From the IMG/VR virus record IMGVR_UViG_2597489893_000002, positions 1 through 30,236 of that record: a stretch of DNA of 30,236 nt. The stretch is one strand, 5' to 3'. This DNA comes from a virus (taxonomy: Duplodnaviria; Heunggongvirae; Uroviricota; Caudoviricetes). A program made the position numbers and the translations under genes. A model generated the notes under the pieces. The model was not told the DNA's origin. It made no database searches and worked only from the letters and a program-made list of their open reading frames with translations. Shown here one piece after another: positions 650 to 4,198 of the stretch (position 1 is the stretch's first letter; each line of letters starts with the position of its first letter).

Positions 650-1351
650 TTATTCTGATACTTGCTCAAAAAACGAGCTGGTAAGGGGAATCCAATCCTC
701 TGACACTTCGCGAGGTCGCGGTTTGCCGTGGAAAAAGATTATTCGGCAGTCTTTTGGTAATGCCCCATTCCCCCTGGAGTAACGCGCGCTCGCATATTTC
801 GAACCAGGTTCCACAACATCGGCCTTGTAACTTACAAACCATCCCGGATACAGATCCTGAAATGCTGGTGTATCATCACCCATAACCTTCCGCAAAAACC
901 CCTGATCACCCCAGCATTCAGTAGTAACACAACGAGCAATCCAACCTTCCGGATCTTGCCAGAATGCACTCCAGATATGCGCTTTTACACTATTTGGTAT
1001 CCACAGGGCACCGCTGCCACGATATTGTGGATGGTAAAAATCCCTAAGCATGGTGAAGTTGGTTGGTGGATTCTCTAGGATTGGGCGTATATCACCGGCA
1101 ATAACCGTGTCCAAATCCAGATAGAACAGATCATCGGTTATATCCGGTCGGAACAACTCGATTTTCGCCCACCAGCCACGGCACTTTTGCCACTGGTTGA
1201 TCAATGGGATAACTTTGACGCCAGGTACATGTAAACACTTCAGGTCTGTCAGGCAAATAATTTCATAGTCTTTTGGCAGTTGATTAACCAGCCACTGCAC
1301 ATCGGAAGCGTTATAGTCACCACCAGAGCGAAGAACTAAAGCAATCTTCAT
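650..1351 (-). CDS. putative GT-A fold glycosyltransferase-like protein (DXD-type), 233 aa
   Basis: N-terminal hydrophobic strand then FYLDLDTV, resembling the DXD motif region of GT8-type enzymes (cf. LgtC LYLDIDVLV as remembered). 4-nt overlap with upstream phosphatase gene. Function inferred from short motifs only. Confidence 0.45.
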
Positions 1352-2040
1352 GCTGCACCATCACCTTTCACTTTCTTCAATGTCAGGTTTCCGCAAAATA
1401 CGGCACCTGTGTCGATATAATGCTGATTCCAGAATGTCTTCGGGCTTTTCACCGGAGTGTGACCAAAGATAAAACGATCTGCGCCCGAAATTTCGCCACC
1501 AATATCATCCATCGAATCACTGATACGCTCGCGCGCCCAGACAACGTTGAAAAGCGGCACCTCCTTACCGAATTGATATTCATTATCCGGATAGTCGGCA
1601 TGGGCTATAACGATAGTTTCTTGCCCGGTGTTCAACTCAATGATATAGGGCAGTCGTCTTACCAACTCCACCAGCGCCCTGGCTAATATTTCCTGATCAG
1701 CGTCCAGCATGAAGAACCATTGACCGCCATTCATTAGCCAGTTATTCACGTTGCCATCAGGACTTAACGCATCGAGCATCAACAGCTCATGGTTCCCCAC
1801 TACTGCCCTGAACCAGGGCATCTGCAATAGTTCCAGAGATTCGACATTTTCAGTACCGCGATCGATAAGGTCGCCGACCGATATCAGTAAATCCTGCGCC
1901 GGGTCAAAATCCACACGATGGAGTTCGGACATCAGTCTGGTGTAGCAACCATGCAGATCACCAACAACCCAGACATTCCTGTATTTGGTACCGTCGATAC
2001 GGTGATAAATTGTGGGTGCCATCATGTATTCTTCAGCCAT
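1348..2040 (-). CDS. ppp: Ser/Thr protein phosphatase, lambda-PPase-like metallophosphoesterase
   Basis: GDLHG, GDLIDRG and GNHE metallophosphatase motifs; alignable by eye along its length to phage lambda phosphatase. Start may be the internal ATG at 2025, which overlaps the upstream stop as ATGA. Confidence 0.9.
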
Positions 2041-2648
2041 TCTTTAAGAGTCATCTGCGGAATACCTCCCATTTTCCCGCATGAAACAACGTCAATCTGT
2101 TCACGCGCAGACTGGAATAACAAAGGCAGGTGACTTAGATTTTTTGGCGTGCCGCCGGAGTGAACGCGTAGTTCTTGCGTAGCGTCAACGCCCACCAGGG
2201 CTACATGTTTGAATCCGATATGGAAAGCCAGGTTCAGAGCACCATATGCACTATTGCCGCTGGCAATTTCATTCTCATCTTCGCAAAGGCCGAAATGTGC
2301 GGACCAGCGCCACGCCCACCACTCGGGAGAATTCGTATTTTTTGGCTCTGTGCCGCGTTCAGCCACACGACGGAAGCACAGAACGCCATCTCTGACTTCA
2401 CGTTCTTTAACATCGGGTAGTGCCATGCAATAACAAACACCACGGCGACGGCGGCCACGACCAACGCGCCGCATATTGTCTGGGGATGGATCAAGGGTGA
2501 AAAAATAAGAAGCGCGGTTAAGCCAGTCGATAGCCCCATTGACCGCTATAATCGGCACTCCGCGCGGCGCAACAAAGTTTGCGGCGCTTGGGCCACTGCC
2601 GACGATAATAACGCGATCACTGCCTCTAAATTTATTCTTGGGAAACAT
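2022..2648 (-). CDS. CstII/DUF115-like (sialyltransferase-fold) protein, paralog B, 208 aa
   Basis: N-terminal IIVGSGPS and central [25 protein letters not shown] resemble the IIAGNGPSL and SGxxxxxxAxxLGxxxIxLxGxD motifs of Campylobacter CstII-type/DUF115 proteins (from memory). Paralogous to the adjacent upstream gene. Confidence 0.55.
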
Positions 2649-3208
2649 TGAATTGCACTGCTCCTACTTGCATTCAAAATATGTAAATCTGCGTGTTTTT
2701 TGCGGGTATCCAGGAACTGCTGTTGCCATTTTGAAATAGACACCTGCGTTGGATTCCGTAGGGCTTGAGGGTGCGCGCCATGCCAATGAAGGCCGTTTTG
2801 CAGAGAACAGTCATAGCCGACTAATACCACTACTTCAGCCCCTGATTCAGCAGCCAGACTGATAGCCTGCGCGCCGCTATTTACCCCTTCCGCCGGTCCA
2901 CAATATCGCCTGTACTCCAACGAAAATGATTTCGCCGCCGCCAGGTTGGCTGTCACTTTGCGGAACCTCCCTCCCGGTATGGTGGAACCGTATTGCTTCC
3001 ACCATGACAAATCACCGGCGTATAAGGCATAAATGTCATCGAACATCAGCCAGGAATTGTTAACCGCAATGATTGAACAGCCAGTTTTTTCTATAGCAGC
3101 ACAGTCCTCACGAGTGAGTGACGGACCGCTACCGACACAAAAAACAGTCCTAGTCGCCCTGGGTGGTATGTTCATTCTCAGCTGCAAATTCAGCCTCCAG
3201 GCGAGCAT
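2546..3208 (-). CDS. CstII/DUF115-like (sialyltransferase-fold) protein, paralog A, 220 aa
   Basis: VFCVGSGPSL and NSGAQAISLAAESGAEVVVLVGYD motifs, same architecture as the downstream paralog. True start may be the internal Met near 3175. The 3-prime end overlaps the next gene by about 100 nt. Confidence 0.55.
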   Translation of the reverse strand: MLAWRLNLQLRMNIPPRATRTVFCVGSGPSLTREDCAAIEKTGCSIIAVNNSWLMFDDIYALYAGDLSWWKQYGSTIPGGRFRKVTANLAAAKSFSLEYRRYCGPAEGVNSGAQAISLAAESGAEVVVLVGYDCSLQNGLHWHGAHPQALRNPTQVSISKWQQQFLDTRKKHADLHILNASRSSAIQCFPRINLEAVIALLSSAVAQAPQTLLRRAECRL

Positions 3209-3371
3209 TCATTTCAGCGATTACCGGGTCCACTACAGCATCTGCTTCCTGTTCATTACGCGGCATGATCGATGCCAGCGATTCATAATTAACCTTGAAT
3301 GACACGATTATTCTCCCGATGTTAATGTGCGCTATATCAAAGAGCACATGTGCACTAATTAATTTATTATT

Positions 3372-3950
3372 TTAAGTGGAATACAACCACTTGTCGCCGT
3401 TCAATACATGCTCAATAGCCTCACCCTTTTTAAGGCTTATGTATTCCAGGATGGCGGTTATCGCTTGTTCTGCACCATACGCAAGAACGACGTAGTAACC
3501 TTCCTCTCTAAGCCTGCGCATCCAGGCGATCTGCTCTTTCGTCGGGGCTTTACCATTTGGTTCTTTAAGCTCAATTCGCATGCCGTGATAAATACCGCAT
3601 GCTTTATCGAGACTCATGTCCGGATAACCTTTTTTCTGCCCTTCAGCCTTCATTTTCCCGGCGGTTGCTTTTGAACGTTTCCCTCCGTTAGGCGTTGCAT
3701 GCAACAGCTCATAGATGTCAGGGTGCTTGCGTTCGAAGTAATCAAAAATGAAAACCTGCTCGAAGTGCTCGCAATTTCCGTCGCGCAGGTCTGGGTTCTT
3801 TGCCAGTGCTGCAAGTGCCTTCGCATGTGGAGAAACTTCTTTTACCGGCGCAAGCGATAAGAATGGATCCTTTTTGGTTTTTGGCCTGGACCGCCCCTTA
3901 TTTCGACGCTCACTAAAAGCCTGAAACTCTTCCTCAGTAAAGCGCAACAT
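3372..3950 (-). CDS. VRR-NUC domain nuclease (PD-(D/E)XK superfamily), 192 aa
   Basis: HATPNGG...GYPDMSL...GIYHGMRIELKEPNGKAPTKEQIAWMRRLREEGYYV pattern typical of VRR-NUC domains. Confidence 0.75.
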   Translation of the reverse strand: MLRFTEEEFQAFSERRNKGRSRPKTKKDPFLSLAPVKEVSPHAKALAALAKNPDLRDGNCEHFEQVFIFDYFERKHPDIYELLHATPNGGKRSKATAGKMKAEGQKKGYPDMSLDKACGIYHGMRIELKEPNGKAPTKEQIAWMRRLREEGYYVVLAYGAEQAITAILEYISLKKGEAIEHVLNGDKWLYST

Positions 3951-3952
3951 AA

Positions 3953-4198
3953 TCAGTCAAATCCTGCCGGTCGCATGCCATATTTACGCTGTTTTGCAGC
4001 CTGCTCTTCCCTGTGCCATTGCGCACACTCAGCGTCACAATAGATGCCTGATTCAATCGGTTCATTGCAGTAACGACACTTCCCTGTAAATACCTGACTC
4101 ACGACCTGTGCCTGCTTTCTGATGTTATCGATGGCCATGTCTTTGAGAGCTTCTAACTGATTCATGCTCAGCTCTGCATCATCAACACGCTCTGCCAA
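3953..4198 (-). CDS. TraR/DksA-family C4 zinc-finger protein, 81 aa
   Basis: C-terminal CRYCNEPIESGIYCDAECAQWH four-cysteine finger after a helical N-terminus. Confidence 0.75.
   Translation of the reverse strand: MAERVDDAELSMNQLEALKDMAIDNIRKQAQVVSQVFTGKCRYCNEPIESGIYCDAECAQWHREEQAAKQRKYGMRPAGFD

Follow-up and report, generated by a model that had tools for sequence, protein, structure and literature searches.

The pmgL–pmgQ segment of phage P1 as a probable mosaic of accessory units with a candidate mobile glycan-transfer cassette

Background

The closest known system to the locus described here is pmgL–pmgQ of phage P1 (also P7 hdmA–D), a row of seven genes within that roughly one third of the P1 genome to which no function has been assigned. 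We analysed a stretch of 30,236 nucleotides from a tailed-phage record (IMG/VR IMGVR_UViG_2597489893_000002, positions 1 to 30,236; hereafter the window), in which seven minus-strand genes at 650–4198 had been proposed by a sequence-only reading to form one host-takeover, modification or anti-defence module. This segment is the known, annotated P1 locus pmgL, pmgM, pmgN, pmgO, pmgP, ppp and pmgQ. It is probably a mosaic, in which accessory units of separate inheritance lie tightly side by side and are probably transcribed together late, and three of its genes, pmgO, pmgP and pmgQ, would constitute a conserved, mobile glycan-transfer cassette consisting of two Maf/GT42/MptE-fold paralogs and a GT8-type retaining hexosyltransferase.

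Glycosyltransferase genes are found beside capsid and tail genes in mycobacteriophages with virion glycosylation. There, as here, the genes lie in the structural or late module and their loss is harmless in laboratory growth, whereas the enzyme families and the hosts differ, the hosts here being Gram-negative. The structural relatives of the enzymes encoded at the P1 locus act either on proteins (Maf on flagellin, GlyE on a serine-rich adhesin, glycogenin, the Skp1 transferase) or on lipooligosaccharide cores (LgtC, Cst-I). Another part of the row invites comparison with the nin genes of phage lambda, which code for the NinI phosphatase and the Rap/NinG resolvase: Ppp is a NinI homolog and PmgM is a nuclease of the junction type, and both are dispensable, as are the lambda nin genes. 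However, PmgM is a VRR-NUC protein, unlike Rap or RusA, and ppp and pmgM lie behind a late promoter beside tail genes, whereas the nin genes belong to the early replication region.

Published genetic data are available for the whole row. Among 29 single-gene P1 knockouts, 24 showed neither a plaque defect nor a change in antirestriction, and the seven row proteins are not among the P1 virion proteins or the five newly essential genes that are named in the accessible part of that survey (PMC9024508). According to the table in PMC10695390, from which the per-gene deletion scores were taken and which in turn cites the former survey, pmgL, pmgM, pmgO, pmgP, ppp and pmgQ are non-essential by CRISPR interference (CRISPRi) as well as by cited deletions. 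In the case of pmgN, CRISPRi gave an "essential" score with plating reduced about 70-fold although the deletion is viable, a discrepancy noted by the authors, while knockdown of the genes downstream of pmgN had no effect (PMC10695390). Simple polarity fails to account for the pmgN effect. The genes are therefore accessory, dispensable and, as far as the accessible text goes, absent from the named virion proteome, in agreement with the sequence-only reading that the row is not a standard morphogenetic set; the systematic deletions which that reading had called for were already in the literature and show no phenotype under laboratory conditions. Names such as glycosyltransferase, alpha-2,3-sialyltransferase, metallophosphoesterase and VRR-NUC are likewise already in place in RefSeq and PHROG. 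Papers dealing with what pmgO, pmgP or pmgQ do, or with DUF115 proteins in phages, were not found in the literature searched. Databases already contain the locus as such; a description of the cassette as a discrete, mobile, sometimes fused and capsid-associated unit was not found in that literature, and its recognition amounts to a modest new proposal on members of known enzyme families and not to a new kind of system.

Results and discussion

Aligned over its full length, the region 31–6500 of the window is 98.4–98.5% identical to phage P1 (AF234172, NC_005856) and 97.6–98.4% identical to P7, RCS47, SJ46 and other P1-like phage-plasmids. Gene order, C1 operators and predicted promoters of the P1 locus are those of the window, and the two differ by point differences only, which are densest at 3306–3404, and by the truncation of the neighbouring gene pmgS through a probable IS3-family insertion. 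The row is flanked on one side by the divergent baseplate/tail operon (26, 25, 7, 24, 6, 5) and on the other side by pmgR–pmgS.

Distribution of the pmgO–pmgP–pmgQ cassette

The evidence for a cassette comes from 25 distinct non-P1 loci with adequate flanks, which were collected from one-genome-per-species contigs, IMG/VR contigs and contigs encoding homologs; the divergent loci in IMG/VR were reached via a distant homolog as query, earlier scans having yielded only near-identical P1 relatives. In all 25 loci a homolog of PmgQ (gene at 650–1351, minus strand) is encoded at most 3 kb from a homolog of PmgP (2022–2648, minus strand), which is the best conserved of the cassette proteins, and in about 16 of them a homolog of PmgO (2546–3175, minus strand, alternative start 3208) lies upstream of the PmgP homolog. 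Of the cassette genes, pmgO is the first and pmgQ the last. The hosts range over Gamma-, Beta- and Alphaproteobacteria and Bacteroidota and include Pseudomonas, Zhongshania, Microbulbifer, Methylophilaceae, Brevundimonas and, from the Bacteroidota, Sinomicrobium. The co-occurrence analysis, which had been suggested as a check of the one-unit proposal, was run on the same loci and turned out negative for the remaining genes, as homologs of PmgL, PmgM, PmgN or Ppp were found in none of the 25.

In addition, an exhaustive profile search revealed fusion proteins joining cassette members in different orders, namely O–P (P0241), P–Q (P0249 and P0314), Q–P (P0341) and Q–P–methyltransferase (P0299). 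The PmgP family is small: a search of 1.84 billion representatives at E ≤ 1e-3 gave 571 clusters. The Citrobacter lambdoid phage phiNP carries contiguous homologs of PmgO, PmgP and PmgQ with 41%, 57% and 44% identity, respectively, in the same order, with the same long overlap of the first two genes and without the phosphatase. The cassette of the E. coli phage IME392 reads O–P–GT1–Q, with a GT1-family glycosyltransferase in third place. Genes added to the cassette in other loci are of glycan-tailoring types and code for two kinds of methyltransferase, one of the class-I S-adenosylmethionine (SAM) type and one of the FkbM type (1.6e-15), for a GT1 enzyme and, with a weak match, for a GT2 enzyme. 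Among the scanned cassette neighbours no gene for sugar-nucleotide synthesis was recognised, which may mean that the enzymes use common host donors.

With respect to its position, the cassette lies directly downstream of the head module in at least ten loci, in the arrangement TerL–portal–ClpP–HK97 capsid–(O)–P–(methyltransferase)–Q, and in the locus L211 it is interleaved with genes for a gp6-like head–tail connector and for head completion. Other sites in late operons are the junction between lysis and terminase genes (phiNP and L183) and the interval between the late antiterminator and the lysis genes (L184). Serine/threonine-rich C-terminal extensions of the capsid proteins were considered as glycosylation sites and discarded, as there are only tails of five to nine residues with one to three serines, which are uninformative.

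Two chromosomal loci provide a different setting. At 2236–18532 of a Pseudescherichia contig (L180), O, P and Q genes are interspersed with five Big_1/invasin/inverse-autotransporter genes, and at 2674–11102 of a Serratia plymuthica contig (L181) they lie near two genes that encode small Big_1 proteins and near a holin/lysozyme remnant. The Big_1 neighbourhood may hint at the type of acceptor protein. However, by BLAST no Big_1 protein was found in the cassette-carrying phage loci, and the link to Big_1 is thus confined to these two chromosomal islands.

Predicted folds of the cassette proteins

The assignment of the three cassette proteins to folds is of high confidence, in line with the transferase folds that had been claimed for them from the letters of the window. 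PmgO and PmgP meet on a common fold, that of the Maf/MptE/GT42 (DUF115) superfamily. PmgO is a distant paralog of PmgP, and both carry an N-terminal GSGPS...IIAVN motif, of which GSGPSL in PmgO is of the nucleotide-binding type; H173 of PmgP is invariant among its homologs. PmgO matches phrog_4603 at 4e-73 and the Pfam MptE-like family at 1e-4, under the cut-off, and for PF01973 the scores of the two proteins are 20.9 and 22.6 bits and thus do not reach the gathering cut-off of 34.6, while a precomputed PF01973 match is present in some homologs at 50–60% identity. Compared with Maf, GT42 (Cst-I/II) and MptE-like proteins they hence share the fold but score under the gathering threshold, and unlike the Maf flagellin glycosyltransferases, which exceed 600 amino acids, they are single-domain proteins of about 200 amino acids. 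Genes for nonulosonic-acid biosynthesis were not recognised near the genes for PmgO and PmgP.

PmgQ is modelled with a GT-A fold whose nearest structural neighbours are in family GT8. Although a search against Pfam Glyco_transf_8 gave no match at E ≤ 0.1, a profile of 45 PmgQ homologs matched the GT8 chains of the Skp1 alpha-galactosyltransferase (7.7e-8), glycogenin (9e-6) and GlyE (9e-5). Its DxD motif, D79-L80-D81, is invariant in the 45 homologs and aligns with the DAD of 6MW5, and an FHGKPRP motif is also present. At 233 amino acids PmgQ is compact in comparison with its GT8 relatives LgtC, glycogenin, Skp1 alpha-galactosyltransferase and GlyE. On these grounds PmgQ appears to be a GT8-like glycosyltransferase, for which retaining hexosyl transfer from a UDP-sugar is predicted.

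Variation of the row within the P1 lineage

Within the P1 lineage, the gene ppp (1348–2040, minus strand, alternative start 2025) is variably present. It is missing from the Cronobacter P1-like phage JK004, where the order is L-M-N-O-P-Q-R with pmgQ directly after pmgP, and from five distant P1-like loci of 50–65% identity (L197, L200, L201, L203 and L205) with the order L-M-O-P-Q-R. In turn, it is present in L087, L204, L208–L210 and L247 (58–78% protein identity) and in the P1/P7 group. Phage D6 has ppp alone, at 84% protein identity, among lambdoid-type early genes, and has no O, P or Q. By sequence comparison, ppp looks like a later insertion, which one P1 sublineage acquired at the pmgP/pmgQ junction, and it would not belong to the cassette. 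The gene product is a lambda NinI-type serine/threonine protein phosphatase of the PPP family, which is intact by its sequence and has the motifs GDLHG, GDLIDRG and GNHE. It matches Pfam Metallophos at 8e-15 (56.2 bits against a cut-off of 21.5) and PHROG_246 'NinI-like' at 2.9e-109, and has 64% identity to the lambda protein according to the P1 annotation. With the NCBIfam equivalog models of PrpA and PrpB it scores 273 and 239 bits, short of the respective cut-offs of 326 and 332, so that Ppp is a relative but not an equivalog of E. coli PrpA/PrpB.

The view that all seven genes belong to a single integrated module, acting on a shared substrate in host takeover or anti-defence, draws on their co-orientation and packing, on the late promoter upstream and the only terminator-like hairpin after pmgQ (see below), and on the order L-M-(N)-O-P-(ppp)-Q, which 68 of the 71 close P1-like loci retain with all seven genes and which, minus ppp, is also seen in distant ones. 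However, these 68 loci are near-identical relatives of P1 and P7 and not independent, so that they add little evidence of their own. In addition, pmgL, pmgM, pmgN and ppp are lacking beside the cassette in the 25 non-P1 loci, several P1-like elements do without ppp while D6 has it alone, and a C1 operator, along with a predicted promoter, splits the row from within. A search of the seven proteins with PADLOC gave no matches, and in the knockout survey (PMC9024508) the 24 non-essential knockouts leave antirestriction unchanged; a role in defence or anti-defence was rejected on these two grounds, which also speak against the host-takeover part of the proposal. The one-module view, which we regard as very improbable, is already largely refuted by the distribution of the genes. 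By comparative genomics the row splits instead into pmgL–pmgM, pmgN, pmgO–pmgP–pmgQ and a lineage-specific insertion of ppp, and the "modification" role proposed for it is plausible for the three transferase-like genes but not for the row as one unit. Accordingly, it is pmgO, pmgP and pmgQ that should be studied as a set, and not all seven genes. Weighing against a strict mosaic, pmgL–pmgM stay beside the cassette in the P1 lineage, in which even elements of about 50% identity keep the order L-M-O-P-Q-R, and some functional tie is possible.

Possible function of the cassette

The analysis shows the identity with P1, the folds, the linkage, the fusions and the variable presence of ppp; enzyme activities, donors, acceptor and timing are what we infer from these. 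PmgO, PmgP and PmgQ would be jointly active in the cytoplasm during lytic growth, drawing on nucleotide sugars of the host, and their product might be a short, sometimes methylated glycan that is placed on an acceptor late in infection. A protein acceptor, and in particular a virion component, is favoured by the head-module context together with the adhesin-island context, and by analogy with Maf acting on flagellin, GlyE acting on adhesins and the glycosylation of mycobacteriophage virions the acceptor may tentatively be sought in a phage-made protein, probably of the virion or head. The most specific form of this idea, which taken as a whole is rather doubtful, would have pmgOPQ as an unrecognised mobile protein-glycosylation cassette in phages of Gram-negative bacteria that decorates proteins of the capsid or of other virion parts, and in the case of the chromosomal copies Ig-like Big_1 adhesins, with a CMP-ulosonic acid of universal availability, such as CMP-Kdo, as donor for the DUF115 enzymes and a hexose added by the GT8 enzyme.

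Several observations weigh against an acceptor in the virion. P1 virion proteomics reported no glycosylation, with a method not designed to detect it, and the P1 capsid gene does not lie beside the cassette. The positions behind the capsid gene and between lysis and terminase genes are generic 'moron' insertion sites, and therefore the genomic context favours late expression more than any particular acceptor. Likewise, the Big_1/invasin adhesin neighbours of the chromosomal copies point to a protein acceptor that is not necessarily part of a virion.

The main rival explanation assumes that the cassette modifies an envelope glycolipid, such as the core of the lipopolysaccharide (LPS) or an undecaprenyl-linked glycan, perhaps masking a receptor from progeny or superinfecting phage. 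The LPS core is the site to which P1 adsorbs, and the O antigen that of D3; the enzymes, as predicted, are soluble proteins of the cytoplasm like core-extension enzymes, and the LgtC and Cst folds would suit such a role. Nevertheless, the cassette resides at late or head operon sites and in P1 behind C1-repressed promoters, so that no expression would be expected in lysogens, for which conversion would be relevant, whereas the known genes for seroconversion are usually located close to the immunity or attachment regions, with expression from the prophage. As the lytic cycle is moreover too short for much replacement of surface LPS, and the chromosomal copies reside among adhesin genes and not among LPS genes, we consider modification of the envelope unlikely.

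Two further readings concern quite different substrates. If PmgO and PmgP were pyrophosphokinases of the MptE or thiamine-pyrophosphokinase type, the cassette would make or activate a small molecule. This is a good deal less probable still, since the N-terminal GSGPS(L/A) seems to resemble the Cst/Maf motif, and since the constant partners, i.e., a GT8 enzyme along with sugar-type methyltransferases and further glycosyltransferases, some of them in fusions, suggest the assembly of a glycan. That the cassette glycosylates phage DNA, as a base hypermodification against restriction, has a precedent in the glycosyltransferases of DNA-hypermodifying phages (preprint 10.1101/2023.12.21.572611), but no hydroxymethylase, TET-type enzyme or enzyme of a dU/dC pathway was found in any cassette neighbourhood examined, the cassette occupies head and late modules and not replication modules, and P1 DNA is not known as glycosylated. 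As the P1 knockouts leave antirestriction unchanged as well, this reading has next to no probability.

Should glycosylation of virions by the cassette prove true, P1, the classic transducing phage, would be a glycosylated particle, and the glycosylation of phage particles would extend from mycobacteriophages to phages of enterobacteria and pseudomonads, with consequences for how stable phages and the currently used P1-based delivery vectors are and how they are recognised by the immune system. If the cassette does not glycosylate virions, the region would consist of ordinary dispensable accessory genes.

Remaining genes and architecture of the row

The open reading frames (ORFs) fill 650–4198 and match P1 from pmgL to pmgQ, in agreement with the earlier count of seven co-oriented minus-strand genes. 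The first gene, pmgL (3953–4198, minus strand), starts with TTG and codes for a four-cysteine zinc-ribbon protein of 81 amino acids. Its cysteines are arranged as CxxC-x10-CxxxC, which does not meet the spacing CxxC-x17-CxxC of canonical TraR/DksA proteins. A match to PHROG_54 'DksA-like zinc-finger' at 1.7e-13 covers residues 5–72 and profile positions 2–74 of 75, but neither a match to Pfam zf-dskA_traR at E ≤ 0.1 nor a TraR or DksA chain in a PDB search at E ≤ 10 was found. Whereas the transferase, phosphatase and VRR-NUC folds predicted in the sequence-only reading hold, the "TraR-like" designation hence goes back to a PHROG label, and a role of PmgL as a TraR-like regulator is unproven.

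pmgM (3372–3950, minus strand) codes for a protein of 192 amino acids with a VRR-NUC (PD-(D/E)XK) nuclease domain, which by phmmer aligns over 104 residues (PmgM 77–180) with the VRR-NUC structure 4QBL at an E-value of 3.5e-17, the PD-(D/E)XK residues GYPD...RIELK being aligned with GYPD...RIEIK of 4QBL. The Pfam VRR-NUC match is marginal (21.2 bits against 23.8), and phrog_5702 'Holliday junction resolvase' is matched at 4.8e-27. The nuclease domain alone is found in 424 unrelated phage records, whereas an additional N-terminal stretch of about 50–75 amino acids, by which PmgM differs from single-domain VRR-NUC proteins such as 4QBL, occurs in P1-like elements only. pmgL–pmgM would be a pair restricted to the P1 lineage, in which a small zinc-ribbon protein is combined with a nuclease of the phage Holliday-junction-resolvase type, and which probably serves the processing of branched DNA. 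pmgN (3150–3305, minus strand, alternative start 3347) is a small acidic ORF of 51 amino acids, or 65 from the upstream GTG; its product matches phrog_2350, and BLAST finds the gene only in the closer P1-like loci.

At the junctions, pmgL and pmgM are separated by a 2-nt spacer (TGAttATG) and pmgM and pmgN by a gap of 66 nt, or of 24 nt when the alternative GTG start is used. All following genes overlap: pmgN and pmgO by 26 or 59 nt, pmgO and pmgP by 103 nt (2546–2648), pmgP and ppp by 19 nt, or by ATGA with the ppp start at 2025, and ppp and pmgQ by ATGA at 1348–1351. The coupled starts described for the row are thus borne out as far as overlaps and ATGA are concerned, while TAATG occurs at none of the junctions. 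Such tight packing is ordinary for phage operons and not beyond expectation.

The reading frame of pmgP is –1 relative to that of pmgO in 18 of 19 loci, whose hosts are very different, with overlaps of 7–148 nt, and the conserved C-terminus of PmgO is encoded across the poorly conserved N-terminus of PmgP. A programmed –1 frameshift from PmgO into PmgP was considered, the overlap in the window containing the heptamer A_AAT_TTA, but was rejected, as about half of the loci have a different heptamer or none (phiNP, IME392, JK004, L192, L203, L205 and L247). The O–P fusion P0241 shows only that PmgO and PmgP work together.

Regulatory signals

The regulatory sites annotated in P1 were mapped onto the window, and operators were in addition matched to the C1 consensus. 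Upstream of pmgL, the P1 annotation places the predicted sigma-70 promoters P1pmgL and P2pmgL and the late promoter LPpmgL at 4235–4305 (minus strand), together with the C1 operator O26/Op82 at 4256–4272, which is also found as an operator match. Within the row, the C1 operator Oppp/Op83 resides in the gap between pmgM and pmgN (3349–3365, plus strand; two mismatches to P1), a short distance downstream of the predicted promoter PpmgN at 3378–3404 in the 3′ end of pmgM, whose –10 hexamer reads TATTCC here and TATGCT in P1. The P1 annotation therefore does not support a single simple operon. A divergence hot spot at 3306–3404, with 12 mismatches to P1 in 99 nt against about 1–3% elsewhere, spans the 3′ end of pmgM, the Oppp operator and the predicted –10 hexamer of PpmgN.

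The only strong terminator-like hairpin of the row is located directly 3′ of pmgQ (585–648, minus strand), nested between the inverted C1 operators Op86a (632–648) and Op86b (583–599), both of which are identical to P1. It was missed by a simple terminator scan but is predicted by RNA folding with –24.6 kcal/mol and a z-score of –10.8. Its inner stem of 11 bp at 596–623 is followed by a U run and resembles an intrinsic terminator, whereas the outer stem is made up of the inverted Op86a and Op86b, with the predicted –10 hexamer of PpmgR inside. The hairpin looks like the end of a transcription unit. A transcript map of the P1 pmgL–pmgQ region was not found in the literature searched; as judged from the annotated signals, a late transcript could run across all seven genes, with an internal entry point under repressor control.

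Beyond the row, positions 1–30 of the window are not P1, homology starting from position 31. The 32-mer at the start of the window is found in 1,729 plasmids and adjoins an IS3-family transposase gene in NZ_CP024192, so that the window probably begins with the terminus, ending in CA, of an IS3-family element inserted in pmgS. The pmgS ORF (28–348) stops here after 106 amino acids, against 420 amino acids in P1. Further matches to the C1-operator consensus are located at 18641–18657 and at 14317–14344, the latter being an overlapping inverted operator pair with a perfect 17-mer at 14328–14344.

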